Shown here piece by piece: positions 3,001 through 45,688 of a stretch of DNA of 52,177 nucleotides. The number at the start of each line of letters is the position of its first letter. Within the stretch, counting starts at the first letter, position 1. The stretch comes from a virus (taxonomy: Duplodnaviria > Heunggongvirae > Uroviricota > Caudoviricetes), in IMG/VR virus record IMGVR_UViG_2563366958_000018; one strand, written 5' to 3'. The translations under genes and the position numbers were made by a program. The notes below the pieces were generated by a model that saw only the letters and a list, made by a program, of their open reading frames with translations, made no database searches and was not told the origin of the DNA.

Positions 3001-3009
3001 TCTCCTTAA
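1..3009 (+). CDS. tnpA: Tn3-family transposase TnpA (Tn1000/gamma-delta-like), 1002 aa
   Basis: Full-length ORF starting MPVDFLT; conserved Tn3-family TnpA blocks (RPGLMFD, GGGEVASADGMRFV, LSPLMHGHINMLGHY); stop codon lies inside the terminal IR as in Tn3-family elements. Confidence 0.9.
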   Translation: MPVDFLTSDQKQNYGCYAAEPNDVQLARYFHLDERDLAFINQRRGKHNRLGIALQLTTARFLGTFLTDLTQVLPGVQHFVAVQLNIHRPEVLSRYAERDTTLREHTALIKEYYGYHEFGDFPWSFRLKRLLYTRAWLSNERPGLMFDFATAWLLQNKVLLPGATTLVRLISEIRERANQRLWKKLAALPNKWQAAQVMELLVIPEGQRVSALEQLKKGPVTVSGPAFNEALERYIRLRSLEFSRLNFSGLPAIQLRNLARYAGMASVKYIARMPQQRKLAALTAFVKAQEITALDDAVDVLDMLILDIIREAKKTGQKKRLRTLKDLDQAALLLARACALLLDDNTDVPDLRQVIFKCVPKNRLAESVSKVNELARPQNNNFHDEMVEQYGRVKRFLPAVLRDLHFRAAPAGEHVLAAIHYLAELNGSKKRILDDAPEHIITGPWKRLVYDAEGRIQRAGYSLCLLERLQDALRRRDIWLENSDRWGDPREKLLQGEEWQTQRIPVCRALGHPVDGRKGVQQLAIQLDETWKAVASRFEKNAEVHICNEGKYPSLTISCLEKQEEPPSLLRLNNRIKQLLPPVDLTELLLEIDAQTGFTHEFAHVSESGARAQDLHISLCAVLMAEACNIGLEPLIKHNIPALTRHRLSWVKQNYLRAETLVSANARLVDFQSTLELAGRWGGGEVASADGMRFVTPVKTINSGSNRKYFGSGRGITWYNFVSDQYSGFHGIVVPGTLRDSIFVLEGLLEQQTGLNPVEIMTDTAGSSDIIFGLFWLLGYQFSPRLADAGEAVFWRVNKSANYGVLDKLARGYADLSKAESQWDEMMRTAGSLKLGTIHASELIRSLLKSSRPSGLAQAIMEVGRVNKTLYLLNYIDDEDYRRRILTQLNRGEGRHAVARAICYGQRGEIRKRYREGQEDQLGALGLVTNAVVLWNTLYMEEALSWMRRNGEEIIDEDIARLSPLMHGHINMLGHYTFTLPEDILKGELRALNLNINNELSP

Positions 3010-3042
3010 CGTACGTTTTCGTTCCATTGGCCCTCAAACCCC
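3005..3042. repeat. 38-bp Tn3-family terminal inverted repeat (Tn1000-like)
   Basis: CTTAACGTACGTTTTCGTTCCATTGGCCCTCAAACCCC is the reverse complement of a GGGGTTTGAGGGCCAATGGAACGAAAACGTACGTTAAG-type IR; overlaps the tnpA stop. Confidence 0.85.
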
Positions 3043-3843
3043 GATCTTTACGAGGTTGACGTAATAGTCATGGGGTAAGTTTGTCATGGTGATAGTTCCC
3101 TTAAAGGTTAAGGATACTCACCACCGTCTGGTTCCAATCATTGGGTGGTGAGACGTACAGGGTTGGAACTACCGGTCACCATGGAATCCGGCGAGTCTTA
3201 CGACTCCCCCGCACGCCCCACCATAATTTGGGTGTAGCAGTGCTTTACGCATAAAAAAACCGCTAACGCGGTATGCGCCATGATGATTATCGGGGTTCCA
3301 ATCCCGACCGTAGATTTTGCTACGGCTCGGAAAGTGTCCACCAATGGCGCATTCATGTCAATACGGCGGGATTTTAACAGAGACAACCACATAGCGTGGG
3401 TTTATTGGTAGGCAGAAACAAAAAAACCGCCCTATTGAGGACGGTTCTTTCGTGCTGATCGGATTCGCGGTCCTTTCAGCATAACGTCGTTGTATAAACA
3501 ACCACGCAAGCACAAGCAGCAAGTTAATTTTACCCAAAAGGTAATAATAGTCCACTATTATGCTTCAAAAAATTGTGGTTCTTGTTGTGCCTGCAAACTC
3601 ACAGATTGTGGGTAGGTTACTGATTTTGTGAAAATAAACGAGTTTTTTCGTTTAATTTCTTTCCTATTACTAATCTTAAAATAATCGTAAAATACCTGTG
3701 GACCTTCCCGCCGATTCGCACCCGGGCACCGACTTTAGGGGAGGATTCTCCGTTGCCGTACATGCAAGCACAAGCAGCCGTGCTTGCTCTCGCGTTGTTT
3801 TCGTCGGTGGGGATGCCGTGAAACGGCCTGTAAGGGCCATACA

Positions 3844-3966
3844 ATGAAAAAATACTGTATGTGTATTTTTATCGTTGTTACTGGGGCTTTGTTTACGCCA
3901 CATGGGGAGGGTTGGAAGATTACTGATAACGCTCTGAATGTGACGATAAACATTAGCAGCAAGTAG
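3844..3966 (+). CDS. Small hydrophobic ORF (40 aa, MKKYCMCIFIVVTGALF...), hypothetical
   Basis: ATG with weak upstream purine tract; single hydrophobic segment; followed directly by a strong hairpin plus T-run. Confidence 0.2.
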   Translation: MKKYCMCIFIVVTGALFTPHGEGWKITDNALNVTINISSK

Positions 3967-3971
3967 CGATT

Positions 3972-3995
3972 AGGCCCCTTCGGGGGCCTTTTTTA
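3972..3995 (+). terminator. Rho-independent terminator
   Basis: AGGCCCC-TTCG-GGGGCCT stem followed by TTTTTT. Confidence 0.5.
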
Positions 3996-4216: not shown

Positions 4217-4465
4217 TTACTTCTGGTTGTATTGAGCCTTGAGTAACTCAAAAGATTTTGTCAGCACTTCTTTCAATGACATATCCATTGAGCTGGCGAA
4301 CGTTTTGTACTCGCGTTTAAATTCAGGGTCGACGTTAAACGCCATTTGTGCCCCACCTGATTTGGTTCTGGTTGGCGTTTCAGTCGGGTCGAAAACCTGC
4401 GGTTGTTCGATCGATGGCGGTACGCCTTTGCTGTTCTTCTTTGGTGGTTTTGATGGTCCGGCCAT
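4217..4465 (-). CDS. ParG-like ribbon-helix-helix centromere-binding partition protein
   Basis: 82 aa, disordered basic N-terminus and C-terminal RHH-like segment (MAFNVDPEFKREYKTFASSMDMSLKEVLTKSFELLKAQ); directly downstream of ParA-like ATPase; strong RBS. Confidence 0.55.
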   Translation of the reverse strand: MAGPSKPPKKNSKGVPPSIEQPQVFDPTETPTRTKSGGAQMAFNVDPEFKREYKTFASSMDMSLKEVLTKSFELLKAQYNQK

Positions 4466-4477
4466 GTGTATCCCCTC

Positions 4478-4508
4478 TTATATAAATCTATAAAACTATA
4501 ATTATATA
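4478..4508. repeat. AT-rich palindromic repeat block (TATAAATCTATA / TATAATTATATA) between the two partition genes
   Basis: Same motif family as at 5187-5287 and five other intergenic sites. Confidence 0.5.
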
Positions 4509-5177
4509 TTACGCGGCAGTAGTCAGAGCCTCAAGCTGGTTGATAATCCCCTGAATAACGTCGTCTGCCTTTTTGCGTGGCGCAACGTATGAGCATTCAA
4601 TGAGGCTTAAGCCCTTATCCTGAGCTTTGCTCAGAGCTGGCTTGTGGGGAATGTACTTATCGACAACAAAGTATGGCGTATTAGCTAGGTACTCTTGGGC
4701 TTCAATGTAGTCGGCTTCGTTTTCAGCCGCGCCTGAGAACACCATGCAAATTTTCTTGATTGGCACACCCTTTTTAACGATGCCGTGAGCTGTGTTAACG
4801 GTGGTTTCTAGGTCATCGGTAGAGAATCTGGTTGGCAAAATAACCATATCCAGAAATTCAGAGAGCTTCGGTACTGATTCAGATGCGTAGGCACCGCCAT
4901 CGACGATAACCAGGTCGTATACTTCTGATTCGATGATTTTCTGGACTTGTGATGGCGTGCCGCACGGCTGCGCCGCGATTGCAGGTTCGATATTGTTGGC
5001 CATTCTGCGTTGTACCCAACGCGTTACCGTTCCGTTAAGCACATCCATATCGATCAGGCATACATTCCAGCCGGCCTTTGCATAAGCAACTGCTAAAGCA
5101 CGGGCAATTGTTGATTTGGTTACGCCGCCTTTTCCGTTGAAAATACCTACAGAGATAGTCATTTGTCGAGACTCCAT
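4509..5177 (-). CDS. ParA/ParF-type partition ATPase (small ParA)
   Basis: Deviant Walker A (GIFNGKGGVTKST) near N-terminus, 222 aa; alternative start at 5162 (MTISV...) has the better RBS. Confidence 0.85.
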   Translation of the reverse strand: MESRQMTISVGIFNGKGGVTKSTIARALAVAYAKAGWNVCLIDMDVLNGTVTRWVQRRMANNIEPAIAAQPCGTPSQVQKIIESEVYDLVIVDGGAYASESVPKLSEFLDMVILPTRFSTDDLETTVNTAHGIVKKGVPIKKICMVFSGAAENEADYIEAQEYLANTPYFVVDKYIPHKPALSKAQDKGLSLIECSYVAPRKKADDVIQGIINQLEALTTAA

Positions 5178-5186
5178 GTGTTTGGT

Positions 5187-5287
5187 TATATAATTCTATA
5201 AATCTATATTTATAGAACGAGGTAAGCATAACCAACTTTTTGGCGGATGAAAAGCGTTTTATATAATTATATAAATCTATAATCATG
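5187..5287. promoter_or_regulatory. Candidate centromere/operator region upstream of the partition operon (two AT-rich palindromic repeat blocks)
   Basis: TTATATAATTCTATAAATCTATATTTATAGA (5187-5217) and TTTATATAATTATATAAATCTATAATCATG (5258-5287) immediately upstream of the ParA start. Confidence 0.45.
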
Positions 5288-5312
5288 TAAGCGGGCGTTA
5301 GCCCGCTTTCAG

Positions 5313-5779: not shown

Positions 5780-6436
5780 TCATAACCAGTTGACAACACT
5801 AACTACGCGGCCAAGAACTTTATAACGCTTAAATTCCTCGTTATTCAGATGCTTAGTGTTCATTTCAGCATCCCTTTCGGTTGACAGCATAACAGCATTG
5901 TCACCCGGTATGACTCTACAGTGCCTCAAAACAACCAGGCCATTTCTGTCTTCAAGGGCATAGATCCCCTCATGAATCTCTGTATCGTCTGTATTAATCA
6001 GGACTTGGGAGCCTGGGGATATTGTTGGTGACATTAACTCATCGTTGCTCTGGAGAACTGACAGAGACGATGGGTTGATGTTCTTGCTTCGTAGAATCTC
6101 CTGTTCTATCGCCAGCACTGGCTTTTCTCCGGCGTGCGATGCTATGTCATTTTTTATAGCTACAAGCCCAGGAATAACAGGAGCGTTAGTATTCTGGGGT
6201 GGGAACGGGTTATCTGTTAAGCACGCGATATAAGGCGCTGATGCTTTCAGGGCGTGCGCGATTTTCTTGATGGCAGGTATAGATGGTTGTCTTAATCCGG
6301 CCTCATAGTTCTGCAAGGTGCTTAAGCCTATTCCAGTGACTTGCTGGAGATCTCCGGCAGTCATGCCGGATTGTTTCCGTAGAGTCTGAATGCGCAGACC
6401 TATTTCTTTCTTGATGTTCTCGTCGTTGCTTTTCAT
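5780..6436 (-). CDS. cI: CI-like phage repressor (XRE-type HTH + S24/LexA-like autopeptidase domain)
   Basis: N-terminal HTH (LRKQSGMTAGDLQQVTGIGLSTLQNYEAG), Ala-Gly cleavage-site candidate, Ser (LMSPT) and Lys (KVLGRV) of the S24 dyad; divergent from the Cro-like gene. Confidence 0.85.
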   Translation of the reverse strand: MKSNDENIKKEIGLRIQTLRKQSGMTAGDLQQVTGIGLSTLQNYEAGLRQPSIPAIKKIAHALKASAPYIACLTDNPFPPQNTNAPVIPGLVAIKNDIASHAGEKPVLAIEQEILRSKNINPSSLSVLQSNDELMSPTISPGSQVLINTDDTEIHEGIYALEDRNGLVVLRHCRVIPGDNAVMLSTERDAEMNTKHLNNEEFKRYKVLGRVVSVVNWL

Positions 6437-6473
6437 GTCTCATCAATCGTGAATGGTGGGTTATTTATACATT

Positions 6474-6591
6474 ACCACATTTAGTGGTTTTCACATGGTA
6501 AGACGAGAGGTGGACCACAAATAGAAGGTTATTTTTTGTTTCGCCCATTGAAAAACTCACGATATGTGGTTTTAATACCACATATCGTGGT
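6474..6591. promoter_or_regulatory. OR-like operator region: three ACCAC-N5-GTGGT palindromes between cI and the Cro-like gene
   Basis: ACCACATTTAGTGGT (6474-6488), CTCACGATATGTGGT (6556-6570), ACCACATATCGTGGT (6577-6591). Confidence 0.6.
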
Positions 6592-6610
6592 TTTAACTGG
6601 AGTTCGTTAA

Positions 6611-7105
6611 ATGACCTTTCAGGAGTGGGTTGACGAAAATGGAGGCCAAATTGGTGTTGCCAGAAAGTTTGGCTTTACGTCATCACTGATTGGTGCCTGG
6701 TATCGCTTCGAGAGATTCCCTCGTGCGGATAACCTGACGCTGCTGGTGGCGTATTCGGAAGGCCGGATTAACGTCCAGCAATGGGCGGCAGATTTTGCCG
6801 AACGTCAGCGCCAGCGTAGCGATGGCACATCGGTTCGGCAGAACAAGATCAAAGGGAATCTCCCTGTTAACTGCTTATCAAGGCTGAAAGCGGTTTTCTC
6901 TGAGCTGGGGATGCCTGCGGAGCGTTGCAATCTACGCGGTCCGCGATTCATTGCTCGCTGGAAACACTCACATGTAACCGTTTCAGAGGTTCGTGATGCG
7001 ATTACCGTGCTGGAGCTTAAGAATAAAGATTCCAGCGATATCGAGCTGATTCATAAGGAGATTAGCAACGCCCGGCGTTCAGCACTTGGGAGGCTTGAGG
7101 AATGA
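6611..7105 (+). CDS. Cro-like HTH regulator (N-terminal HTH, 164 aa)
   Basis: Divergent from cI across the operator region; HTH-like segment GGQIGVARKFGFTSSLIGAWY. Confidence 0.5.
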   Translation: MTFQEWVDENGGQIGVARKFGFTSSLIGAWYRFERFPRADNLTLLVAYSEGRINVQQWAADFAERQRQRSDGTSVRQNKIKGNLPVNCLSRLKAVFSELGMPAERCNLRGPRFIARWKHSHVTVSEVRDAITVLELKNKDSSDIELIHKEISNARRSALGRLEE

Positions 7106-8583: not shown

Positions 8584-8961
8584 GTGAGACGCGATCTGGA
8601 TAGCTTGTTTGAGCTATGGGCGCTGTGGGTGCGCAATGGCTGCAACGCCCGTAGCGGTTTCGCGTCGATGTTAGAAATGATGATGGTTACGCGCTGCCAG
8701 TTTACCGGAGGGGGCGGCGCACCAAATGACTCACTGGAAACCAGTATAGAGGGAGCGGTGACGGCCCTCACGGTAGTTGATGAGACTGCGGCGCTGGTTG
8801 TCCGAATTGAATACGGGGCGTGGGAGATTCGGGGCCTCGACATAAATGCACCGCATATTGATAAAGCCCACGCCCTTTCTCTTAGCCTCAGACAGTATCG
8901 CCGGAAGCTGGCAAAAGCCAGGGCGTATGTTGTCGACTATTTGAAAAAGCGAAGAGAGTAA
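8584..8961 (+). CDS. Possible Q-like late antiterminator (short Q family)
   Basis: 125 aa, GTG start, position after nin-like genes and N-terminal pattern (LFELWALW) reminiscent of short Q proteins; weak. Confidence 0.35.
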   Translation: MRRDLDSLFELWALWVRNGCNARSGFASMLEMMMVTRCQFTGGGGAPNDSLETSIEGAVTALTVVDETAALVVRIEYGAWEIRGLDINAPHIDKAHALSLSLRQYRRKLAKARAYVVDYLKKRRE

Positions 8962-9010: not shown

Positions 9011-9130
9011 AAAATCTATAAATATATAATTATAGATTTATATAAAAAGTGCTTTACAGGTGGGAAAAAATTTCCTATGGTTATACCCGAAACCGAGCGA
9101 TACCCGCCCTGGTTAAACCGGAGAAATCTG
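9011..9130 (+). promoter_or_regulatory. Conserved promoter/operator/leader cassette, copy 1
   Basis: AT-rich palindrome + TTTACA-N17-TATGGT + 50-nt leader ending GGAG-N8-ATG; near-identical copies at 15968-16081 and 48828-48941. Confidence 0.5.
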
Positions 9131-10198
9131 ATGAATAAACAAGTAATTATTTCTGACTGGATCAACAACCCTAACAGCCTGTTAAGCACTGATACTGGCT
9201 ACCTATTACGCCATGTTAATGGTCGTATGGTCAAAAGCGATGAGCACGAAACCTTTTTCTTTGTTGAAGACGATGGGCGTATCTATGAGGATGGTTACTC
9301 TTATGAAGCCCAAACTGGTTGTATCCCTGCGGAGCTGGTGGATGTAACAGAAGATCTGCGCAAAGCATGGCTTGAACAGCAGCAGCGCGGAGATGATTAC
9401 GTAAACACCTATCAGGAACGCCAGAACGCGCGTCTTGCCCGATATATTGCTCGTGCAGAAAAAGCCAGAAAAGAAGGTGCGGTAGCGCATAAGCGAGCGC
9501 ATGACCTGTTGGATGTGATCCCGTTAGGCCAGCCGATTTTAGTTGACCATTATAGCGCGAAAGGCCATCGCCGCCGTTTGTCTAAAGCTGATGCGTTATT
9601 CAGAAAAGCGTTTGTTGAATGCGAAAGTAAAGCATCACACTACGAGAGCAAAGCCGCAGGTGTTGGTCGTAATGGAATTTCGTCTGATGATCCTGATGCG
9701 CTATTTAAGTTGCTTCGTAAGCTGCAAGGCTGCATGAAGTCACACGTCAAAATGAAGGCCGCAAATAAGGCCATTCGCAAATACAAAAAAGACCAAATAC
9801 AGCAGCTTTCTGCATTAATCGATCTCAGGTTTACAGAAAGCGAAGCCAAAGAGTTACTGGCCGGAGATTTCTGTGGGCGCATCGGATTCCCTTCATACGC
9901 ACTGAGCAACAATAACGCCGAAATCAAACGACTACAGAGCCGTATTAAGGAGCTTGAATCGGTCAAGTCTGTAACAGGAGCACAGCGCGAAGAATACGAC
10001 GGCTTTTCTATGGAGATAGATCCAGAGGATAACCGCATCCTGTTTTATTTCCCTGGCAAACCAGAGGCAAACATTCGTTCGCTGCTTAAATCACGCGCCT
10101 TTAAGTGGAGTCCAACCCGTAATGCATGGGTTCGCAAGATTACTCCAAACGCCCTGGCTGATGCCCGATATCTGAAAGAATCGCTATTGAAAGCCTGA
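9131..10198 (+). CDS. DUF3560-like protein (355 aa)
   Basis: GQPILVDHYSAKGHRRR and C-terminal FKWSP...NAWVR segments resemble DUF3560; start taken at the ATG after the conserved leader rather than the in-frame ATG at 9077. Confidence 0.55.
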   Translation: MNKQVIISDWINNPNSLLSTDTGYLLRHVNGRMVKSDEHETFFFVEDDGRIYEDGYSYEAQTGCIPAELVDVTEDLRKAWLEQQQRGDDYVNTYQERQNARLARYIARAEKARKEGAVAHKRAHDLLDVIPLGQPILVDHYSAKGHRRRLSKADALFRKAFVECESKASHYESKAAGVGRNGISSDDPDALFKLLRKLQGCMKSHVKMKAANKAIRKYKKDQIQQLSALIDLRFTESEAKELLAGDFCGRIGFPSYALSNNNAEIKRLQSRIKELESVKSVTGAQREEYDGFSMEIDPEDNRILFYFPGKPEANIRSLLKSRAFKWSPTRNAWVRKITPNALADARYLKESLLKA

Positions 10199-10275
10199 CA
10201 GTAAGCCTACGGCGGGATGTCTCCCGCCGTATATAGAATTATATATTTATATAAATGTATAAGGACGCCTCGACA

Positions 10276-11107: not shown

Positions 11108-11796
11108 AAGAACGTGGTGTTGTTTTTAATGACGATATGGTTAGGGCCATCCTCGAAGGAAGGAAGACGCAGACTCGCCGACCTGTAAAAAATGTCAGGG
11201 CCGATAACTGCCTGGTTATCCGTAAACCGACAAAGAAACGCAATGGTGTCTATACCCACGTTATGGATGCACCGGAACATGGTTTATGCCCGTTCGGTAA
11301 CGTTGGTGATCGCATATGGGTCCGTGAAGCGTGGGCGATATTAGGCAATGAGGATGGTTGCAGTGTGGACTGGAACGACAACCTTTGTCGTGGCGATGAG
11401 AAGAACGCAGCAAGGATTTATCGGGCCAGTTGTGAGCAAAAGTCTGGTGATTACGGTTTATGGTCGATACCCGATGATGCCGACTGGAAACCTCACACTG
11501 TGAATGAAAAGTTTGATGGCGGGTGGCGTCCATCAATTCACATGCCGCGCTGGGCTTCACGTATTTTGCTGGAAATTACCGACGTGCGTGTGGAACGGCT
11601 GCATGACATGAGCGAGGCAGATGCTAAAGCGGAAGGCGCATCTCCGGCGACGTACAAGATTACACCGCCGGAAGCTGTTTATCGCGTTGGCTTTGGTGAT
11701 ATCTGGCGCGGTATTTACGGGCAAGAGAACTGGCTATCTAACCCGTGGGTATGGGTAATTGAGTTTAAACGTATTCAGGGGGCAACCAGTGAGTAA
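11104..11796 (+). CDS. ASCH/PUA-like domain protein (230 aa)
   Basis: N-terminal AILEGRKTQTRRP matches the GxKxxExR-type ASCH signature. Confidence 0.45.
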   Translation: MKERGVVFNDDMVRAILEGRKTQTRRPVKNVRADNCLVIRKPTKKRNGVYTHVMDAPEHGLCPFGNVGDRIWVREAWAILGNEDGCSVDWNDNLCRGDEKNAARIYRASCEQKSGDYGLWSIPDDADWKPHTVNEKFDGGWRPSIHMPRWASRILLEITDVRVERLHDMSEADAKAEGASPATYKITPPEAVYRVGFGDIWRGIYGQENWLSNPWVWVIEFKRIQGATSE

Positions 11797-12046
11797 TTCC
11801 GCACGGCTACAGCTTGGTTTTTCACCGCTATCAAAAACCATCGTGTTGGCCAAAATGCGCGATTTAGGTGACGGAACAAAACGCCGTGTAGGCAATGATC
11901 GCGGTCGTGATGTAACCAACGAGGCCGCACAACTCGTTTGGCATCTTGTCATGGCAGAAGGCGGTGAAATCAATTGGGAGCTGGATGATGGTTCTCGCAT
12001 GGTGTTAAGGGCAGAAAAGCAGGGGGCAAACGATGAAAAACCGTAA
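11789..12046 (+). CDS. Hypothetical protein (GTG start; alternative TTG at 11759)
   Basis: ORF in operon context; start uncertain. Confidence 0.3.
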   Translation: MSNSARLQLGFSPLSKTIVLAKMRDLGDGTKRRVGNDRGRDVTNEAAQLVWHLVMAEGGEINWELDDGSRMVLRAEKQGANDEKP

Positions 12047-12225
12047 AGCAAAGATGCTTATTTCCCGTGTATACAGACTTTGCTACCCCAGCCAGTGGTT
12101 GAGAGTTAGCAATCGCCGTGTGGTGTTGTTTTCATTTTCTGGAATTGCCAGAGAGGGAGTCAAAGATAAGCGCAGCGCGGCGCAAAACCGCTGGAAAAAC
12201 CACTTGCGTACTAAAGGAGAGTGAT

Positions 12226-12435
12226 ATGGCTGTTGCCGCAAGTTACACCATGCATCTCTATTGTGACTGCCGCCAGTGTACGGAAGGTGTATATCCAGTA
12301 CCAGACTTCGGTGAATATATCGGTACGTCATGGGCTGGCTGTGCAAAAGAGGCACGTAAAGATGGGTGGCGAATAAGCGCCGACAAAACGCGTGCTTTTG
12401 CGCCCGGGCATAAAGTTTTGAGGATTAACAAATGA
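12226..12435 (+). CDS. Small Cys-rich hypothetical protein (69 aa, CDCRQC motif)
   Basis: ATG with AAGGAGA RBS 5 nt upstream. Confidence 0.35.
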   Translation: MAVAASYTMHLYCDCRQCTEGVYPVPDFGEYIGTSWAGCAKEARKDGWRISADKTRAFAPGHKVLRINK

Positions 12436-12839
12436 CCACTTTAACCGACAAAGAACTGATTAAAGAAATCAAAGAGCGCATAGGCAGCCTGGACGTCCGA
12501 GACAATATTGAGCGCCGTGCTTATGAAATTGCTCTGGCATCACTGGAAGCAGAGCCGGTAGCGTGGGAATGCGGTGAAAACATAATCCTGTTTAACCCTG
12601 ACACAGTTGAAGCATACGCAAAACGTGCGGAAATATCACCTAAACCTCTATTCTCCGCGCCGCCAACGGTGGTAGTGCCGGATGATGGGCGCGAAAAGTT
12701 CGAAGCACTTGTCAGGTTTCATGCGGGTGATAAAAACCATGAAACATTATTGATTCGTGCCAACGAAGGGATGAATTACCAGGACCCGAATGTTGATCTG
12801 GCGTGGATATTCTGGAAGTCCAGTCGTGAACATATATAA
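12432..12839 (+). CDS. Hypothetical protein (135 aa)
   Basis: ATGA overlap with upstream ORF. Confidence 0.45.
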   Translation: MTTLTDKELIKEIKERIGSLDVRDNIERRAYEIALASLEAEPVAWECGENIILFNPDTVEAYAKRAEISPKPLFSAPPTVVVPDDGREKFEALVRFHAGDKNHETLLIRANEGMNYQDPNVDLAWIFWKSSREHI

Positions 12840-13180
12840 GCTGTAGTGAGAATCCATGCGATTACGAGCAGTATTCAGATATTCAGAGCGGGTAATGAAG
12901 CACATACAACCGAAAACATGGCAGAAACTGGACTCTATGGGAGCTAAGTTGGAGAAGATTACTCAACTTAAGCAGTGGCATATCGGCGAATATTATGGAA
13001 GTCCTGGTCGGGATGTTCGGTTGGTAAAAAGTTGAACATTGTTTTTTTATTGATCGATTAACCACGATATGAAGGTTTTTTTATGGAAAAACCTTGTTTT
13101 AGATGGTAACTGGGTGTAGTGTTTCATTTAACGTAGTAAAACTGCGTTAAGCGATTACCGCGTAATTTGTTGCTTTATGA

Positions 13181-13211
13181 AGCCCTGCCTTTTTCGGCGG
13201 GGCTTTTTTTT
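13181..13211 (+). terminator. Rho-independent terminator immediately upstream of the lysis cassette
   Basis: AGCCCTGCC-TTTTTC-GGCGGGGCT stem then a run of eight T. Confidence 0.5.
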
Positions 13212-13224
13212 AACGAGGATTTCA

Positions 13225-13620
13225 ATGTCAGCAGAACCAATTTCCGGTACGGCCGTTGCTGCTGGTGGCCTGATGGGTGCCAGCGTTTTTGGTATTGCAA
13301 CTGGTATTGATTACGGCGTTGTATTCGGGGCATTTGCTGGCGCTGTTTTCTATGTTGCTACAGCGGTGAATATTAGCCGTCTCAAGCTGATTGGCTATTT
13401 CTTTACATCGTTCATTGTTGGAGTGATTGGAGCGCCGTTAGTTGGCTCATTTCTTGCCAAATGGACCAGCTACAACGATCGACCTCTTGATGCGCTTGGT
13501 GCGGTTATTGTGGCTGCATTGACAATTAAAATCCTCACGTTCGTAAACAGCCAGGATCTCGGTAGCATCTTTGGAATGCTTTCCCGCTTACGTGGAGGGG
13601 GTTCAAATGGTAAGCAGTGA
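13225..13620 (+). CDS. Putative holin (multi-pass membrane protein)
   Basis: Gly/Ala-rich hydrophobic helices; first gene of the lysis cassette; RBS GAGGA. Confidence 0.5.
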   Translation: MSAEPISGTAVAAGGLMGASVFGIATGIDYGVVFGAFAGAVFYVATAVNISRLKLIGYFFTSFIVGVIGAPLVGSFLAKWTSYNDRPLDALGAVIVAALTIKILTFVNSQDLGSIFGMLSRLRGGGSNGKQ

Positions 13621-13903
13621 CCCGTCAGCACTGATTAATGCGGTGCTTTGCACAGTAATAGTAATGGCGCTGATGCTTTATCAACGGAAAGACTCCAGGC
13701 ATCGTCCATTTGTTTCCTTTCTGGCTTATATCTACGTCATTGTATACGCCAATGTTCCCTTCCGTTATGTGTTCGGTCTTTATCAAGAATCCCACTGGCT
13801 GGTGGTTATTGGAAATCTGATTATCTGCATCGTTGTTCTGTATTTCAGGGGCAATCTGGCGCGGATAGTTGACGCATTAGGATTTAATCATGACCAAAGA
13901 TGA
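13607..13903 (+). CDS. Small membrane protein (holin/antiholin partner candidate)
   Basis: Two to three hydrophobic helices, between holin and endolysin. Confidence 0.4.
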   Translation: MVSSDPSALINAVLCTVIVMALMLYQRKDSRHRPFVSFLAYIYVIVYANVPFRYVFGLYQESHWLVVIGNLIICIVVLYFRGNLARIVDALGFNHDQR

Positions 13904-14432
13904 GATTTTTAACAGCATTCTTGGAAAAGAGGGCGGCTATGTGGATCACCCTGACGACAAGGGAGGCCCAACAAAGTGGGGCATTACTCAGAACACTGCC
14001 CGTGCTCATGGATACCGTGGCGATATGCGCGATTTAACCCGCGAACAGGCACTAGAAATCCTTGAGGCTGATTACTGGTACGGACCACGCTTTGATCAGG
14101 TGGCCGCATTATCCTCTGATATTGCCGCAGAGCTGTGTGATACCGGTGTGAATATGGGGCCAACAGTGGCGTCCAAAATGCTTCAACGCTGGCTGAATGT
14201 GTTCAATCTGCGTGGGAAGCTGTATCCCGATTTGGATGCAGATGGACGAATCGGTCCACGTACCATTAATGCGCTGCGTGCTTATCTTGGGAATCGGGGA
14301 AAAGACGGCGAACGGGTGATGCTGACGTCGCTGAACTGTACGCAGGGCGAACGCTATCTGGAGCTGGCGGAGAAGCGCGAGGCGAATGAGTCGTTTGTCT
14401 ACGGCTGGATGAAAGAGCGAGTGGTGGTATGA
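13890..14432 (+). CDS. Endolysin, GH108-type N-acetylmuramidase with peptidoglycan-binding domain
   Basis: N-terminal ILGKEGGYVDHPDDKGGPTKWGIT signature of GH108 lysozymes. Confidence 0.8.
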   Translation: MTKDEIFNSILGKEGGYVDHPDDKGGPTKWGITQNTARAHGYRGDMRDLTREQALEILEADYWYGPRFDQVAALSSDIAAELCDTGVNMGPTVASKMLQRWLNVFNLRGKLYPDLDADGRIGPRTINALRAYLGNRGKDGERVMLTSLNCTQGERYLELAEKREANESFVYGWMKERVVV

Positions 14433-14707
14433 CTGGTTTGAAGGCCGTTTTGTCATTTATTGGCACAATTATATTGGTTGCATTCGGCGCGTTTGGTTTT
14501 GGTCGTATGAAGGGGCGAGAAAAGGCCGAAGATGAAGCTGAAAAGCAGCGCATTAATGAGAATGCAGCCGCCGTAAAAGCCACTGCGGAGCGGCGTATAG
14601 AAGTGACAAAAGAGGCGGGGAATGTACAGCAGAGTGTTAACCATATGGCTGATGACGATGTTGATCGCGAGCTGCGGGAGTCGTGGAAGCGTCCCGGTGG
14701 TGGTTGA
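14429..14707 (+). CDS. i-spanin (Rz-like)
   Basis: N-terminal TM helix, charged coiled-coil region, directly after endolysin. Confidence 0.6.
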   Translation: MTGLKAVLSFIGTIILVAFGAFGFGRMKGREKAEDEAEKQRINENAAAVKATAERRIEVTKEAGNVQQSVNHMADDDVDRELRESWKRPGGG

Positions 14708-14831
14708 TACCGCCTGTGATTGGGTAAAGCCCATCTACCTGACTGATCACGACATCGATGTTATGGACCGCCAGACAAAGAAAGATATTCTGGCTCATAA
14801 CAGGGCATGGGAAATCAACTGCCGAAAGTAA
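14622..14831 (+). CDS. o-spanin (Rz1-like lipoprotein), overlapping the i-spanin 3' end in another frame
   Basis: Signal peptide with lipobox LIAS-C, Pro-rich mature part. Confidence 0.6.
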   Translation: MYSRVLTIWLMTMLIASCGSRGSVPVVVDTACDWVKPIYLTDHDIDVMDRQTKKDILAHNRAWEINCRK

Positions 14832-15000
14832 TATATATTTCTATAATTATATAAATATATAGTTACAACATTCTATGCGCTTTTCTCATGGGCGCACGCA
14901 TCAACCATGTTTGTCTGATATGCCGCCGCGCCCAAAAATCCTGAATTTATTGGCTGGGATTTTCGTGCGCGGCGCCACACCAGACAAACAAATCAAATAT

Positions 15001-15076
15001 GGCCCCTTAGCTTAGTGGTTAGAGCAGGCGACTCATAATCGCACGGTCATCGGTTCAAATCCGGTAGGGGCCACCA
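15001..15076 (+). tRNA. tRNA with CAU anticodon, most similar to tRNA-Ile2 (ileX-type, lysidine-dependent AUA decoder); could also be a Met tRNA
   Basis: Cloverleaf folds: acceptor GGCCCCT/AGGGGCC, anticodon loop CUCAUAA, T-loop TTCAAAT, 3' CCA encoded. Confidence 0.85.
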
Positions 15077-15383: not shown

Positions 15384-15971
15384 ATGGAGGCAATTGCATT
15401 GTTTAATCTGATTTATGCAGATCCCCCCTGGGAATACAAAGATAAGTGTAAGGATGGGAATCGTGGAGCTGGTTTTAAGTATCCAACGATGAAAGCTGAG
15501 GATATTGCTCGTATTCCTGTCTGGCAGCTTGCTAATCCTGAATCGTGTTTGTTGGCCATGTGGTGGGTTCCGACTCAGCCAGAAGAAGCGTTGCTGGTGG
15601 TGAAAGCATGGGGATTCAGGCTTATGACCATGAAGGGCTTCACATGGAACAAATGTGGTAGCCGACAACCAGATAAGCTGGTGATGGGGATGGGGCATAT
15701 GACTCGTGCAAACAGTGAAGATTGCTTGTTTGCGGTAAAAGGCAAATTGCCGACCCGCCTTGATGCGGGGATCATTCAGTCGTTTACATCGCCTCGTCTG
15801 GAGCATTCTCGGAAGCCTGATGTGGTTCGTGACAAGCTGGTAAGGCTGTTAGGTGATGTTCCTCGTATTGAGCTGTTTGCTCGCGGTGATTTACCTGATG
15901 GTTGGCATGGCTGGGGCAACCAGTGCAATGGAGGTATCCAGTTGCATGATGCTCTCTGGCAAGTGGCATAG
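15384..15971 (+). CDS. MT-A70-family N6-adenine DNA methyltransferase (orphan)
   Basis: Catalytic DPPW motif (IYADPPWEY), 195 aa; no adjacent restriction endonuclease. Confidence 0.8.
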   Translation: MEAIALFNLIYADPPWEYKDKCKDGNRGAGFKYPTMKAEDIARIPVWQLANPESCLLAMWWVPTQPEEALLVVKAWGFRLMTMKGFTWNKCGSRQPDKLVMGMGHMTRANSEDCLFAVKGKLPTRLDAGIIQSFTSPRLEHSRKPDVVRDKLVRLLGDVPRIELFARGDLPDGWHGWGNQCNGGIQLHDALWQVA

Positions 15972-16081
15972 AATTATATAATTATAGATTTATATAAAAA
16001 GTGCTTTACAGGTGGGAAAAAATTTCCTATGGTTATACCCGAAACCGAGCGATACCCGCCCTGGTTAAACCGGAGAAATCT
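15968..16081 (+). promoter_or_regulatory. Conserved promoter/operator/leader cassette, copy 2
   Basis: Identical to copy 1 over ~100 bp. Confidence 0.5.
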
Positions 16082-16352
16082 GATGAAAGTACAAGACCGT
16101 GAAGTAGTAAAAAACCTCCTGCAATACCTGACCTCAAAAAACCTGACGGGCAGCGTTGAGTTCCGTGAAGCGTTAAAACATTTCAACGTCACTACGGTTT
16201 ATCGTTGGGAAAACAAACATTCTGAAAGACCGTATGTGGTGGATGTTTTTGCGCCTGATATTGAGTGCGGTTTTGAGCGTCATTCGTTCAAGGAGAAACA
16301 TTCTGCTGATTTTTTTTGTGAGGTTGTATGTGCGGCAGGAGATGATGAGTGA
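16082..16352 (+). CDS. Hypothetical protein (90 aa)
   Basis: First ORF after cassette copy 2. Confidence 0.45.
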
Positions 16353-16549: not shown

Positions 16550-16572
16550 ACCGTAACGATAACGAACAACGA

Positions 16573-16598
16573 GCCTCGGCAATTGCCGGGGCTTTTTT
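16573..16598 (+). terminator. Rho-independent terminator
   Basis: GCCTCGGC-AATT-GCCGGGGC then TTTTTT. Confidence 0.5.
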
Positions 16599-17262: not shown

Positions 17263-17309
17263 CTCTTACAGCCTCGCGTGTCGCGGGGCTTTTATTTTCA
17301 GGTGATGTT

Positions 17310-17954: not shown

Positions 17955-18578
17955 ATGACAAAACATCTTAATGTGGTTTCTTTACCACTTTCTGTGTTGA
18001 TTGGTTATGAAAAGAACGCTCGCACACACTCCGTGGAGCAGGTAGATCAGATTATTGCCAGCATACAGGAGTACGGATGGACTAATCCGATCCTGATAGA
18101 CGAGAACAACGTTGTAATTGCTGGTCATGGTCGAATTGCTGCGGCCACTCAGTTGGGGATGGATGATGTTCCCTGCATTGTTCTGGCTGGGCTAACGGAG
18201 AATCAGAAGAAGGCATATCGTCTGGCCGACAACCGTATTCCGCTGAATGCTGGTTGGGATGAAGAGTTGTTAAGCGCGGAGCTTGCAGATCTTGCGGCCG
18301 ATGATTTTGCTCTGGACTCAATTGGTTTTACTCAGCGCGAACTGGATAACTTATTGAGTGCGGCGGTCTACGATGACACAGAGGGTATGGATATCCCATT
18401 TGAGAAGGATGAGGCCAAATCAGGCGTAAAAGTTCAGTACCTGTCATTTGGAGGTCATAAAATCCCGGCAACGGATGAGGAAGCGGATCGTTTTGACTGC
18501 GCGGTGTCTCGTTATGTTGATGATAATGGCAGCTATATCGGATTTGTATCCGCATTGCTGGCTGGGGAGGTGTGCTGA
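17955..18578 (+). CDS. ParB/Srx-like nuclease-domain protein (207 aa)
   Basis: N-terminal ParB-type fold with GHGR arginine motif (VIAGHGRIAAA); paralogue of 21244-21834. Confidence 0.7.
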   Translation: MTKHLNVVSLPLSVLIGYEKNARTHSVEQVDQIIASIQEYGWTNPILIDENNVVIAGHGRIAAATQLGMDDVPCIVLAGLTENQKKAYRLADNRIPLNAGWDEELLSAELADLAADDFALDSIGFTQRELDNLLSAAVYDDTEGMDIPFEKDEAKSGVKVQYLSFGGHKIPATDEEADRFDCAVSRYVDDNGSYIGFVSALLAGEVC

Positions 18579-19951
18579 TGCTTCACCTCAATTACGACAT
18601 AACGCACCTACGCGGCGCGGAATATAACCCGCGTTTTATCGGTGAGGATGATCTTGCGAGGCTGGCGGAAAGCGTCAGGGAGCTGGGGCTTGTGAAGCCA
18701 TTGATAGTGCGCGGCGATTTGCTGGTGGCGGGACACCAAAGGACGAAGGCGCTACGTAAGTTGGGAATAACGCGTGCTGCGGTGTATGTGTTGCCCTGTG
18801 AAACGACGGTATACGACGAAGTACGGTTTAACCAACTGCATAACGGAACGGATTTTGATAGCGGAGATGAGCGTTGCAGGGTGTCCGGTCTGGAAGATAA
18901 GCATGGTTTTGTTCAGGTATCGGCAAGCCAGATCTCAGGCAATATGCGCGCGAAAATGGCATATGTTCGAAAGAACATAGCGGAACTGGTTATCAAGTAT
19001 GGTCCGTGGGGTGGTTGTGTTGCTACTCAGTCTGGTGAGGTTATTCACTGTGCTCAGTATGCATTAGCAGCGAAAATGACGCGCACACCGCTAACGGTGT
19101 TTGTGATCCCTGATGTTGAGAAGGAAAAATACCAAAGTTATCTGAATAAAACTTATGGTGTATTTGAGTATTCTCATCTGGAGAAAACAACATACATCCA
19201 GACGTATGCGCAGCTTATGCGGTTGCGTAATGGTGGCAGCCTGAAATCAAATCTGTATGAGTCGTTGATCCTCCCGATCGTTGCCAAGACGCCAAGAGGA
19301 ATTGATTTTGGTTCGGGGCAGGGAGACTACGCGCGAATGCTCAGGGCAAAGGGATATAACCTGCATGATCTTGAGCTTTTTCGCCGTAAGGGCGCTGGAA
19401 ACACTCTGGATAGGGCTGCAACAAACCGAATGATTGATACGCTGGTGGACGACTTAAAAACGCGAGGGCGTTACGACTACGTGATTTGCGATAGCGTTTT
19501 GAACTCGGTCGATAGTGTCGAGGCTGAATGGTCCGTTCTGACGGTTCTGAAAGGCCTGTGTAAAGCTGGTGGGTCAATATTCTTTTCTGGTCGTAGCCGT
19601 GGAGAGCTGGAAACAGTCCTGAAGCAAACACAAGCGGCGAGTTCCAAAAGCCGGCTTTATTTTATTGATCATAACGGTTTTACCGCGTTGTACCGGAAGG
19701 GGCACTGGTTTTACCAGAAGTTTCACTCTGATGATGAAGTGAAGCAGTTGTGTCGTGTACATGGTTTCAGGATTAAGCGGTCAATATTCAACTGTAATAG
19801 CTGGTATTTGCACGTCATTAACGATGATTCCCTTAGTTGGGCGAGTCTGGAGAAAGCTGTTCGTTTTGAGTTTGAGTTGCCGTTGCCTGGTGGTTCAACA
19901 ATCGGACGATCTGATGATGTGCTGGCGGCTTTCCGGCCGTTGATTAAGTAG
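18578..19951 (+). CDS. ParB/Srx-like N-terminal domain fused to a class I SAM-dependent methyltransferase domain
   Basis: N-terminal LVAGHQRTKA ParB motif; C-terminal motif I GIDFGSGQGDYA and acidic post-I motif (YVICDSVLN); no DPPY/NPPY motif seen. Confidence 0.6.
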   Translation: MLHLNYDITHLRGAEYNPRFIGEDDLARLAESVRELGLVKPLIVRGDLLVAGHQRTKALRKLGITRAAVYVLPCETTVYDEVRFNQLHNGTDFDSGDERCRVSGLEDKHGFVQVSASQISGNMRAKMAYVRKNIAELVIKYGPWGGCVATQSGEVIHCAQYALAAKMTRTPLTVFVIPDVEKEKYQSYLNKTYGVFEYSHLEKTTYIQTYAQLMRLRNGGSLKSNLYESLILPIVAKTPRGIDFGSGQGDYARMLRAKGYNLHDLELFRRKGAGNTLDRAATNRMIDTLVDDLKTRGRYDYVICDSVLNSVDSVEAEWSVLTVLKGLCKAGGSIFFSGRSRGELETVLKQTQAASSKSRLYFIDHNGFTALYRKGHWFYQKFHSDDEVKQLCRVHGFRIKRSIFNCNSWYLHVINDDSLSWASLEKAVRFEFELPLPGGSTIGRSDDVLAAFRPLIK

Positions 19952-19967
19952 TGTGTAGGAGGCGCTG

Positions 19968-20687
19968 GTGGCTGACAGAATTGAGATAAAGATGGATTTT
20001 TCTTCTCAGGATATTCAACGACAACTCCAGCGCCTTGAAGAACGCGAATTGCCGTTCGCAATGGCGCTTGCGGCAACCAGAACGGCAAAGGCTTCTCAGG
20101 CTGCGATTAAGAATGAAATTAATCGGGTATTTGACAGGCCCACGCCGTGGATTCAGAACTCTACTTACGTTTTGGCCGCAAAGAAGAGTGATCCTACAGC
20201 CATTGTGTATGCTCGTGAATGGGGAGGAACGCCAGCCCCTGTAACGTTGACTCCGCAAATCGAAGGTGGCCAACGACAGTACAAACGCTCAGAAGGGGCG
20301 CTAAGGGCTGGTGGATATTTGCCTAACGGCTGGCAGCTTGCTCCTGGTCCCGGCGCAAAGCTGGACAAATACGGGAATATTTCGCGGGGGCAATTACAGC
20401 AGGTCTTATCTGGCCTAAGAGTTCAGCGAGATGCGCATCAAAATCGCCGTCAGGGCAAGCCTACGGAGTTTTTTGTTGTTCGACCTGGTACAAGTAACCC
20501 GCTTCAACCAGGCGTCTGGCAGCGCGTTGGGCGGCGTCCTACGTTGATCCTTACGTTTATCCAGCAACCTAACTATTCGCAGCGTCTTGATTGGCATGGC
20601 GTGGCGCTGCGTGCTGGTGAGGATGCGTTTGCTGATGAAGTCACAAAGGCTATTGATGACATTCTTTCTAAGACCTTCTCTCGTTAA
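19968..20687 (+). CDS. Hypothetical protein (239 aa, GTG start)
   Basis: AGGAGG RBS upstream. Confidence 0.45.
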   Translation: MADRIEIKMDFSSQDIQRQLQRLEERELPFAMALAATRTAKASQAAIKNEINRVFDRPTPWIQNSTYVLAAKKSDPTAIVYAREWGGTPAPVTLTPQIEGGQRQYKRSEGALRAGGYLPNGWQLAPGPGAKLDKYGNISRGQLQQVLSGLRVQRDAHQNRRQGKPTEFFVVRPGTSNPLQPGVWQRVGRRPTLILTFIQQPNYSQRLDWHGVALRAGEDAFADEVTKAIDDILSKTFSR

Positions 20688-20879
20688 TCATCGTGTGGTT
20701 GATGGTGTTGTTATGCAGAGTGTATTCACTGTGTTCTGTAGCGTCGCTCGCTGGCTGTCTGTGGGGGAGCACGAGCATCGTTTCATCGTCCGGCAGAATT
20801 GGGTCCTTCTGGCCAAAAGCGTTGGATGCGGGTCATTCGAACCCCGATATTCGGCTAGCTAAACGTGAAAAAAGTTAGG

Positions 20880-21243
20880 TTAAAAGTTGCGGTAAAAGAA
20901 ATTTACTCATCTCATTGAAAAATATCGGGAAAACGTGATTTTTTCTGTATTTGTGCTGGTAAAAAGAAAGTGGAAAATTTTCTTTTAGATCATCAAGATA
21001 CGCGCAGATCTTTAACCAATGTGATGTTGTTCTGATAAAAATCGTTATAAATCATGCAAATACATCCAATCTTTTAACCAAAACACCATCGCAAGATCCT
21101 TTTTACTTATAAAAACTTAATAAAATCAGATAATTATGCTGGTTTGTGTGATTTTTCATGAGTAAAAAGATCGTCATTTTTCTCTTTTAGTATCAATAAG
21201 TTAAACAGTTTTCTTTAACCTGTTGTGTTATGGCGGTTAAAAA
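20880..21243. promoter_or_regulatory. AT-rich intergenic region upstream of the packaging genes; candidate cos/pac and late regulatory region
   Basis: Three TCTTTAACC-type repeats (about 21009, 21070, 21212) and four AGATC sites in about 200 bp. Confidence 0.3.
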
Positions 21244-21834
21244 ATGGCTCTAAAAATCGAATATTTACCAGTCGGTAAGTTGCTCAGATATGCCAAAAAT
21301 TCACGGACTCATTCAGATGAGCAAGTTGAACAGTTGGTGAACAGTATCCGTGAGTTCGGTTTCACTAATCCTGTGCTGATCGATGAAAAGAATGAACTGA
21401 TTGCGGGGCATGGGCGGCTTGCAGCAGCCGAAATTCTGGAAATGGATAAAGTTCCGGCGATTCGGTTGAGTAACCTTTCTGAAAAACAGAAGAAGGCTTA
21501 CAGGATTGCAGATAACAAGCTGGCCTTAAATGCTGGCTGGGATATGCAGCTTCTGGCCGAAGAAGTCAAAGAGTTAATGGATGATGATTTTGATATTGAT
21601 CTGCTTGGGTTTAATGATGCAGAGCTTGACGAAATGTTAAGCGATGAACAGCCGCAGGAAGAAGACGATAATTCTTCCCCTGTTGTTCAAATTAAGTACC
21701 TGGCTATTGATAAAGAACGTATTCCCGCGACGGATATGGAAATTGCATTGTTGCTGGATGTTTATCGTCAGTACCACGACGCGCATGAAACGCATGAGGG
21801 ATTTGTTCAGTATCTTGCTAATGGTTGCAAGTAA
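21244..21834 (+). CDS. ParB/Srx-like nuclease-domain protein immediately upstream of terminase small subunit
   Basis: LIAGHGRLAAA motif; clear paralogue of 17955-18578. Confidence 0.7.
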   Translation: MALKIEYLPVGKLLRYAKNSRTHSDEQVEQLVNSIREFGFTNPVLIDEKNELIAGHGRLAAAEILEMDKVPAIRLSNLSEKQKKAYRIADNKLALNAGWDMQLLAEEVKELMDDDFDIDLLGFNDAELDEMLSDEQPQEEDDNSSPVVQIKYLAIDKERIPATDMEIALLLDVYRQYHDAHETHEGFVQYLANGCK

Positions 21835-43451: not shown

Positions 43452-43489
43452 AGGGGTCTGACGCTCAGTGGAACGAAAACTCACGTTAA
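43452..43489. repeat. Tn3 38-bp terminal inverted repeat (bla-proximal end)
   Basis: GGGGTCTGACGCTCAGTGGAACGAAAACTCACGTTAAG. Confidence 0.9.
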
Positions 43490-43599
43490 GGGATTTTGGT
43501 CATGAGATTATCAAAAAGGATCTTCACCTAGATCCTTTTAAATTAAAAATGAAGTTTTAAATCAATCTAAAGTATATATGAGTAAACTTGGTCTGACAG

Positions 43600-44472
<873 letters not shown>

Positions 44473-44642: not shown

Positions 44643-45222
<580 letters not shown>

Positions 45223-45652: not shown

Positions 45653-45688
45653 TATGATTGTGGGTGTCTGGTTGGAAAGTGACCAGAT

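Follow-up and report, generated by a model that had tools for sequence, protein, structure and literature searches.

The antiterminator Q of phage 21 (Q21) resembles region 4 of the extracytoplasmic function (ECF) sigma factors, and its cassette comprises the Q gene, a promoter, a pause element, a terminator and the late genes (10.1101/651190). In Stx phages, early termination of the PR′ transcript at tR′ yields the regulatory small RNA (sRNA) StxS (PMC7547250). The locus compared here with these systems is a gap of 385 bp (positions 12840-13224) in a DNA stretch of 52,177 nt, IMG/VR record IMGVR_UViG_2563366958_000018. This stretch, referred to below as the window, is identified as an Escherichia coli phage-plasmid of ~48 kb with a Tn3-type transposase, bla and an IncFII-type repA aboard. 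In the phage-plasmid this gap separates the early/accessory operon from the lysis genes. To our knowledge, neither the silencing of the lysis genes during plasmid life nor the switch mechanism has been described for these phage-plasmids. The gap contains a conserved structured RNA of 176 nt with a near-invariant block of 44 nt, which is unannotated and went unrecognised in a first inspection of the letters alone (the sequence-only reading); annotation by the Prokaryotic Genome Annotation Pipeline (PGAP) gives nothing across the gap, or merely 'hypothetical protein'. The elements of this RNA, including a mini open reading frame (mini-ORF), and of its downstream border are as follows.

13036-13211, plus strand: conserved structured leader or 3′ untranslated region (3′UTR) RNA, a constant unit of 176 nt delimited by the upstream stop codon and the last T of the T-run
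13072-13095, plus strand: hairpin SL1, which sequesters the Shine-Dalgarno sequence of the mini-ORF and has its AUG in the loop; pairing 95.6% on the plus strand against 80% on the minus strand
13083-13109, plus strand: mini-ORF of 8 codons, M-x-x-P-C-F-(R/M/G)-W-stop, with TAA at 13107-13109 and GAAGG (13071-13075) 6-8 nt upstream
13104-13148, plus strand: near-invariant block of 44-45 nt, with the mini-ORF end, a G/U-rich single strand (13110-13126) and hairpin SL2 (13127-13151)
13179-13211, plus strand: intrinsic terminator T1, the tR′-equivalent, an 11-bp stem with seven GC pairs followed by eight T (13204-13211)
13215-13620, plus strand: holin Shine-Dalgarno sequence GAGGA (13215-13219) and holin gene (ATG at 13225), the first gene of the lysis cassette

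Diverged relatives of the junction are found on Salmonella plasmids (e.g. L015) and in a third lineage of viral and metagenome contigs. A search of public collections with a 20-nt core of the leader gave 34 further loci, bringing the distinct versions of the leader to 29 overall, from E. coli, Salmonella and metagenomes. In the alignment of the three lineages the non-coding DNA after the small ORF that precedes the leader is far more conserved than the ORF itself. A stretch of 186 nt folds better than all 200 shuffled sequences (z = -5.0), and RNAalifold yields four helices, P0, SL1, SL2 and T1, with P0 formed by ACCAC (13061-13065) and GUGGU (13103-13107). In the consensus structure 97.6% of the cells are paired on the plus strand, and in 500 shuffles neither the observed pairing nor the observed covariation score is ever attained. 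SL1 is the 9-bp stem hairpin already seen by the sequence-only reading (AAGGTTTTT/AAAAACCTT at 13072-13080/13087-13095), which was also right in describing tandem hairpins, as further ones are present at 13127-13151 and 13153-13167. Two pairs of SL1 are changed on both sides in the Salmonella type, and where the E. coli clade has a change on one side only, the pair mostly survives as a G.U wobble in the plus-strand RNA. Pairing in SL1, SL2 and T1 amounts to 96-98% on the plus strand versus 79-82% on the minus strand. Because of the G.U-compatible changes and this asymmetry, it is evident that the leader is selected as a plus-strand RNA.

From its 5′ end the leader shows first an A/T-rich block (13040-13053), then AACCAC and TGAAGGTT, both invariant, on either side of four hypervariable bases (11 versions), and then a hairpin top that varies, followed by CCTTGTTTT, again invariant, and by the block 13104-13148; the 3′ part is a lineage-specific spacer that keeps UUGCU-UUU, followed by the terminator, of which position and strength are kept and the sequence is not. 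Across the three lineages the block varies only at 13113 (G/A) and 13141 (A/G), although the adjacent gene has reached saturation at its synonymous sites. Part of this invariance is imposed by the 20-nt search pattern, but it holds in the remaining 25 nt of the block and in independent, BLAST-derived Salmonella sequences. The leader has a single copy in the window, and no family reaches threshold in an Rfam scan of it.

The Shine-Dalgarno sequence, the ATG/GTG start and the in-frame TAA of the mini-ORF are kept in 49 of 50 loci, the exception being one locus with ATA. The start varies only between A and G at its first base, and the third lineage reads ATG-TAA-ATG. The 5′ arm of SL1 is the Shine-Dalgarno sequence, and the 3′ strand of P0 is made up of the last codons; the invariance extends to synonymous positions. 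From these signals, translation of the mini-ORF appears possible. Attenuation by a leader peptide was considered and rejected: when the mini-ORF is held single-stranded the T1 hairpin is unchanged in all three lineages, and no alternative pairing is seen. A 15-codon ORF over 13103-13150 was likewise discarded, since it lacks a ribosome-binding site, has a stop that the third lineage does not share and shows no synonymous variation. The RfaH ops element contains a C3:G8 pair, and the resemblance of GGGTGTAGTGTT at 13112 to ops was dismissed on account of four mismatches in 12, one of them at C3. The consensus of the DnaA box has a conserved T4, at which TTAACCACA, compared by eye, has a mismatch, and a reading as such a box was discarded.

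The strong intrinsic terminator reported at 13181-13211 was recovered as a stem-loop at 13179-13206 with a T-run to 13211. The region has no stronger terminator of this kind than T1, and its hairpin energy is -18.8 kcal/mol. All lineages have it at this place, although the stem sequence differs through compensatory changes, with CG turned into UA at one pair and wobble changes at two others. The lysis cassette that follows extends to about 14831 and encodes a phrog_198 holin, a phrog_217 holin, a GH108 endolysin and an Rz-like spanin. Only 3 nt lie between the last T of the T-run (13211) and the Shine-Dalgarno sequence of the holin, which starts at 13215, so that there is no room for a promoter between T1 and the holin; with this Shine-Dalgarno sequence starting 4 nt past the T-run, expression of the lysis genes would need read-through. 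In the Salmonella lineage, where ~50 nt separate terminator and holin, a promoter scan of this spacer lists none. A holin gene comes first after T1 in 50 of 50 loci; it belongs to the E. coli type in 42 of them and to an unrelated type of 97 aa in 8. By comparison, four kinds of gene precede the leader, and the left joint falls exactly at the stop codon of each. Leader and T1 are thus tied to the lysis cassette and transcription must therefore enter upstream and pass T1; the position of the recombination joints at the preceding stop codon likewise indicates that the conserved unit is transcribed from upstream. An N-terminal extension of the holin from an ATG at 13177 through T1 was rejected, because variation in the T-run and in loop length breaks the frame and other lineages lack the ATG. 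Two further strong terminators lie on the same strand before the morphogenesis genes.

16571-16598, plus strand: intrinsic terminator T2, a 10-bp stem with seven GC pairs, 25 nt before the next gene
17270-17298, plus strand: intrinsic terminator T3, a 9-bp stem with seven GC pairs, 12 nt before the next gene

Equivalents of T2 and T3 are present at the corresponding positions of the Salmonella plasmid L015 (46187 and 341). A row of terminators before lysis and morphogenesis genes is a signature of processive antitermination, and the earlier proposal that these genes would need antitermination agrees well with the placement of T1 and the conservation of T2 and T3.

Family scans of 35 neighbouring proteins recognised no antiterminator. 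A structural comparison points to one candidate, which is followed by a promoter-like cassette.

8584-8961, plus strand: candidate Q21-family antiterminator of 125 aa, directly after a DUF1064/resolvase gene
9014-9143, plus strand: D1 cassette, with tandem 8-bp AT-rich repeats, a promoter-like site TTTACA-17-TATGGT (9053-9081) and a conserved 5′UTR

The placement of the candidate gene corresponds to the order rusA, ylcG, quuD in prophage DLP12. An AlphaFold model of the protein has a predicted local distance difference test score (pLDDT) of 76. In a Foldseek search of the Protein Data Bank (PDB) its six best matches are all phage 21 Q, with probabilities of 0.90-0.98, template modelling (TM) scores of 0.45-0.54 and E-values of 0.08-0.3; the best full-length structural matches are Q21 and AlpA. 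By sequence the protein has no match in Pfam even at E 10, and hence none to the profile PF06530. Aligned by hhalign with the QuuD family, which is itself related to Q21 by sequence (E 6e-10), it gives a weak match (E 0.014, probability 3%) that is collinear over 100 columns. The assignment as a Q21-type antiterminator is accordingly put forward as a candidate whose chances fall slightly short of even. The locus resembles the lambdoid Q-PR′-tR′ arrangement of the Q21 type (PF06530) in having a strong terminator directly before the holin and further ones before morphogenesis genes, and in having a gene for a small protein predicted to resemble sigma region 4 after a Holliday-junction resolvase gene and before a promoter-like cassette. 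Unlike that arrangement, the terminator is ~4 kb rather than ~200 nt away from the candidate promoter, with the accessory operon inside the terminated unit; the gap has no identified promoter, Q-binding element or pause element, and the protein stays below all sequence-family thresholds.

D1 is a 127-nt unit with three copies in the window (9017-9143, 15969-16095 and 48827-48953; 87-100% identity). It contains four tandem AT-rich repeats of 8 bp (ATAGAATT ATATAATT ATAGATTT ATATAAAA) and its 5′UTR ends at the start codons of three unrelated genes; the 'MVIPETERYPPWLNRRNLM' N-termini given by the gene caller are in fact this shared 5′UTR. Salmonella L015 has two nearly identical copies, at about 38170-38290 and 45570-45690. 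Of the copies in the window, the first precedes the accessory genes ending at T1 and the second (15969) precedes T2 and T3, which is consistent with the order Q gene, promoter, terminator, late genes. Judged by its sequence, D1 at 9014-9143 is the nearest plausible promoter feeding T1, in the canonical position after Q, ~4 kb upstream of the terminator. AT-rich boxes of the TATAATTATAGATTTATATAA type occur between genes at ~8 sites (4465-4510, 5186-5292, 9014, 10223-10264, 14823-14864, 15966 and 48824), which include the surroundings of parA, the region before a MarR-like gene, the region after the lysis cassette ahead of a tRNA, and each D1 copy.

The explanation we prefer, which on the present comparisons has about an even chance of being correct, is that leader and T1 form a gate: transcripts from upstream would stop at T1, and read-through mediated by the Q21-like protein would open the lysis genes. 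Transcripts might arrive from a repressor-controlled early promoter near 6549-6577 or from the D1 and AT-box promoter-like sites at 9053 and about 10230. In the plasmid-prophage state they would end at T1, leaving the lysis genes silent. A termination-resistant RNA polymerase would transcribe the lysis genes and then, beyond T2 and T3, the morphogenesis genes. The likeliest agent would be the product of 8584-8961, given the order resolvase, Q, promoter, with D1 as the loading promoter. T1 would thus work like tR′ of phage lambda with a PR′-equivalent ~4 kb upstream and the accessory genes inside the terminated unit. As the likeliest second role of the leader, the terminated 3′ end may be released as a stable regulatory RNA in the manner of StxS. 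Several points weigh against this explanation. Every transcription step in it is read from sequence. The Q model leaves the conservation of the leader unexplained; a Q mechanism does not require the leader, the conservation of which therefore needs another explanation. No sigma-dependent pause element was identified after 8584-8961 or at D1, and the AT-rich boxes probably bind a global regulator of the plasmid, which fits their distribution better than a Q-binding element. T1 could be just leaky, and an activator-dependent promoter without a sigma-70 consensus could be present in the leader, e.g. the TTGTTT-16-TAGTGT pair at 13095-13122.

The gap also contains an operator-like motif, which the sequence-only reading had correctly recognised as a half CI-operator: AACCACGATATG is present at 13060-13071, and its ACCAC is half of the palindrome CCAC-N5-GTGG.

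13061-13077, plus strand: ACCAC-N5-GAAGGTT, an operator-like half site that coincides with the 5′ strand of P0 and the mini-ORF Shine-Dalgarno sequence

The full palindrome occurs seven times in the window versus 0.46 expected, with sites at 6475 and 6578 (immunity region), 5724 (by the repressor gene), 3387 (near C4/isrK) and 45639 (upstream of repA). The motif ACCAC-N5-GAAGGTT has exactly two copies (6514 and 13061) versus 0.16 expected, and Salmonella plasmid L015 has it at the same two places. Its flanks are invariant and its four central bases hypervariable (11 versions). The immunity region itself extends over 6437-6611, from a CI-like repressor gene (5780-6436, minus strand) to the first rightward gene (6611). 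It contains three CCAC-N5-GTGG operators, two of which are the arms of a 14-bp inverted repeat (6557-6590) that overlaps, as judged by eye, a TTGAAA-17-TTTAAT promoter at 6549-6577. The dispersal of palindromic CCAC-N5-GTGG sites over the immunity region, upstream of repA and near C4/isrK, with a variant half site in the leader, is reminiscent of the scattered operators of P1, but in the leader just one half of the operator is present, with no evident promoter beside it. The motif suggests that the half site in the leader could serve as a repressor-binding mark, through a roadblock or looping. The strand-specific constraints on the RNA argue, however, against DNA binding as the sole function of the leader.

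A different origin of the RNA was implied by the sequence-only reading, in which a constitutive PR′-like promoter inside the gap would produce a short RNA ending at T1 and a Q-type factor would be loaded there. The comparison with a lambdoid PR′/tR′ unit holds for the tR′-like terminator, which is followed by lysis genes in all 50 loci, but not for PR′: no sigma-70 promoter is found in the gap directly upstream of the terminated leader, and the gene directly upstream is not a Q gene, the neighbour being an orphan protein of 59 aa.

12856-13035, plus strand: gene for a small basic protein of 59 aa with a net charge of +8, a real but optional member of the junction
13032-13037, plus strand: TTGAAC hexamer, which overlaps the TGA stop (13033-13035) of the small ORF and gives no evidence of being a promoter element

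The 385-bp gap had been delimited properly (the upstream gene extends to 12839 and the holin ATG is at 13225), but since the small ORF is a real gene the true non-coding gap is 189 bp (13036-13224). The hexamer TTGAAC is indeed present, but it cannot be retained as a -35 element: the hexamers 16-18 bp downstream (TCGATT, CGATTA and GATTAA) do not resemble a -10 element, and TTGAAC itself varies among close relatives and is absent from both sister lineages. A promoter scan of 11500-14500 at a match of at least 9/12 gives none within the gap on either strand, and a relaxed scan (at least 7/12, with A2 and T6) gives none in the gap common to the three lineages. An in-gap promoter is favoured by the operator-like half site upstream and by weak candidates, namely TTGTTT (13095-13100)-16-TAGTGT (13117-13122), in which the hexamers are invariant and three spacer positions variable, and TTAAAA-17-TATTAT, which matches 9/12 over the stretch designated block A in the third lineage only. 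The TTGTTT/TAGTGT pair, however, matches only 6/12, a level reached by chance many times per 400 bp, and P0 and SL1, which lie upstream of the start it would specify, are under RNA-level constraint and hence transcribed. We regard a promoter of this kind as very improbable. Quite improbable, too, is the reading that T1 is an ordinary leaky operon-end terminator and the conserved sequences are DNA sites, either a repressor roadblock at ACCAC...GAAGGTT or an activator site for an antisense promoter like PaQ of phage lambda. It would account for the half-site motif shared with the immunity region in two lineages and for a hypervariable centre between invariant flanks, as in protein-binding sites, but G.U-type substitutions and strand asymmetry point to selection on the plus-strand RNA, 44 invariant bases downstream are left unexplained, and T1 bears the features of an efficient terminator.

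Two further explanations place the function in the RNA. The leader may be a cis-acting antitermination signal in the nascent transcript, comparable to nut or put, that lets the polymerase which transcribed it pass T1, T2 and T3, whether or not a phage factor takes part. As with HK022 put and lambda N-nut, a conserved structured RNA precedes serial terminators in one transcript, which is the classic layout for processive antitermination; the near-invariance of the leader would fit contact with conserved host machinery, and the leader is constantly linked to the lysis cassette. Unlike those systems, it has neither boxA (the best matches have 2-3 mismatches in 8, the closest lying in the T-run) nor a GNRNA boxB hairpin, and when the complete HK022 genome was searched without filters for matches to a leader covariance model, the put sites gave nothing and all matches were terminator-like, the best (19 bits) being in the nin region. 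No N-like factor is constantly present, the adjacent small basic protein being missing in 9 of 50 loci, and with a constitutive cis signal right before it T1 would serve no purpose without a regulated factor, and none has been identified. A signal of this kind is considered improbable. Somewhat less so, though still rather unlikely, is the proposal that leader and T1 are the gene, or the 3′ end, for a trans-acting Hfq-type sRNA that would act through the invariant G/U-rich strand, which is compatible with the gate explanation preferred above. The anatomy fits, with a hairpin domain, the G/U-rich linker 13110-13126 (near-invariant, only 13113 varying, and unpaired in the structure tested), a second hairpin, UUGCU-UUU in three lineages and a terminator with a tail of 8-9 U; selection for plus-strand structure agrees with it. 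The layout, though only the layout, also resembles that of StxS (PMC7547250): the RNA would end at the terminator standing guard over late and lysis genes, would have a long U-tail and conserved structure upstream, and could be made in lysogens. Whereas StxS is a short primary transcript, a long operon transcript would here supply the RNA as its 3′ end.

With GcvB the leader shares the order of elements (5′ hairpin, G/U-rich single strand, hairpin, terminator), and in a search with 351 bp the GcvB model (RF00022) matches it over its full length, but below the gathering threshold (36.6 bits versus 42; E 1e-6). Homology to GcvB was rejected, as the R2 region is missing or deleted in the alignment, the sister lineages give no match (for the Salmonella type none at E 10) and, in the reciprocal search, the leader covariance model R1 matches K-12 gcvB only at the terminator (14.9 bits, E 0.1). 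Also against an sRNA is the stem and loop of SL2, which is as invariant as the supposed seed and in this unusual for an sRNA. No promoter of its own has been found, the leader is never seen away from the holin in the 50 loci, and no target has been identified: complementarities of the putative seed within the window are 10-12-mers, at chance level. Among them, UCAUUUAACG (13124-13133, in the invariant leader block) is complementary to CGTTAAATGA (6605-6614), a segment in which the first early gene starts (6611). A match of 10 nt is at chance level for the window, and this one is notable solely by its position. We tentatively suggest, with chances clearly below even, that the leader represents an undescribed RNA family confined to a widespread group of enterobacterial phage-plasmids and that its near-invariant 44-nt core has a defined molecular partner, the leader being either a new cis-acting RNA for antitermination or lysis timing, without boxA/boxB or a put fold and possibly working through the 8-codon mini-ORF, or an sRNA of lysogens, ended by the lysis-gene terminator, that would reprogram gene expression of the host with a GcvB-like G/U-rich seed. 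Terminator, conserved RNA and candidate Q-like gene together offer a precise and cheap experimental handle on the lysis switch. If the terminated leader proves to be a stable RNA, it would be the second case, after StxS, of a lysis-gate terminator that doubles as the source of an sRNA, and an sRNA-making lysis gate would then sit on a plasmid that spreads resistance genes.

The small ORF before the leader had been called of doubtful reality and placed at 12896-13035. It is longer (12856-13035) and a real gene, with an end-to-end match to phrog_9594 (E 2.5e-45) and evidence of purifying selection. Homologues are found in all three lineages, always just upstream of the leader; those in the two diverged lineages have 64-66 aa and the same place. 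Between lineages the proportion of synonymous differences (pS) is 0.61-0.75, i.e. saturated, versus 0.24-0.32 for nonsynonymous differences (pN), third codon positions change most, and the proteins are ~60% identical. The net charge across the homologues is +5 to +8, and an AlphaFold2 (AF2) model of the protein shows a single long helix of low confidence (pLDDT 68). Among 1.84 billion cluster representatives no relatives outside the group were found, the total being four clusters, and there is no match in Pfam, NCBIfam or PDB. Nine of 50 related loci, among them the 48.9-kb plasmid pMB9880_3, lack the gene, which is therefore dispensable; in these nine a different gene ends exactly at the leader start. 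As a basic protein with an arginine-rich N-terminus, adjacent to the leader in three lineages, it had initial appeal as a factor for the leader. A role as a required N-like or Q-like factor was rejected on account of the nine loci without it, full-size plasmids among them, together with the absence of outside homologues and of PDB or family matches, and the one-helix model.

At 95-99.7% identity the gap sequence is present in 70 of 5,426 complete E. coli genomes (~1.3%), and 71 of its 72 places in E. coli are plasmid-borne, on plasmids of 46-52 kb. It is further seen in plasmids of E. fergusonii, E. albertii and Klebsiella aerogenes and, at 96% identity, in the 48.5-kb plasmid of E. coli ATCC 25922. 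The Yersinia phages vB_YpM_39/41/44, as which these phage-plasmids form virions, have it at 97-98% identity; a literature search on vB_YpM_39 gave no results. The group is thus common and unstudied, with members in E. coli, Salmonella, Klebsiella and E. albertii and in the reference strain ATCC 25922. Regulators of this phage-plasmid are not recognised by current family libraries.

Elsewhere in the window a Tn3-family transposon is split over two sites, 1-3042 and 43453-44975. The first has the transposase (1-3009) and an inverted repeat (3004-3042); at the second, the counterpart of this repeat (43453-43491) is accompanied by a beta-lactamase gene on the minus strand (43600-44460) and by a truncated gene for a resolvase (44643-44975); ~8.7 kb of phage-plasmid backbone separates the two parts on one side. 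The split suggests a transposon-mediated inversion or rearrangement, with the insertion adjoining the antirepressor region. In that region three RNAs match Rfam families above threshold. C4 antisense RNA (3141-3228) and isrK (3253-3326) are on the minus strand, and the third is ryfA over its full length (3698-3994, 141.8 bits), so that 3141-3994 combines a P1-like, immI-type antirepressor control region with an sRNA/toxin locus of chromosomal type on a phage-plasmid. An ORF6N-Rha antirepressor-like gene is present at 51035-52177 (minus strand). Between the lysis cassette and an MT-A70 methyltransferase gene lies a tRNA with anticodon CAT (15001-15076), which is tRNA-Met according to ARAGORN and tRNA-Ile according to PGAP on a near-identical plasmid; the latter annotation would imply a lysidine-modified CAT. 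Finally, three ParB/Srx-domain genes are found in the late region (17955-21834), before the terminase genes, an odd company for head genes, and one of them is fused to a methyltransferase-like region in relatives.

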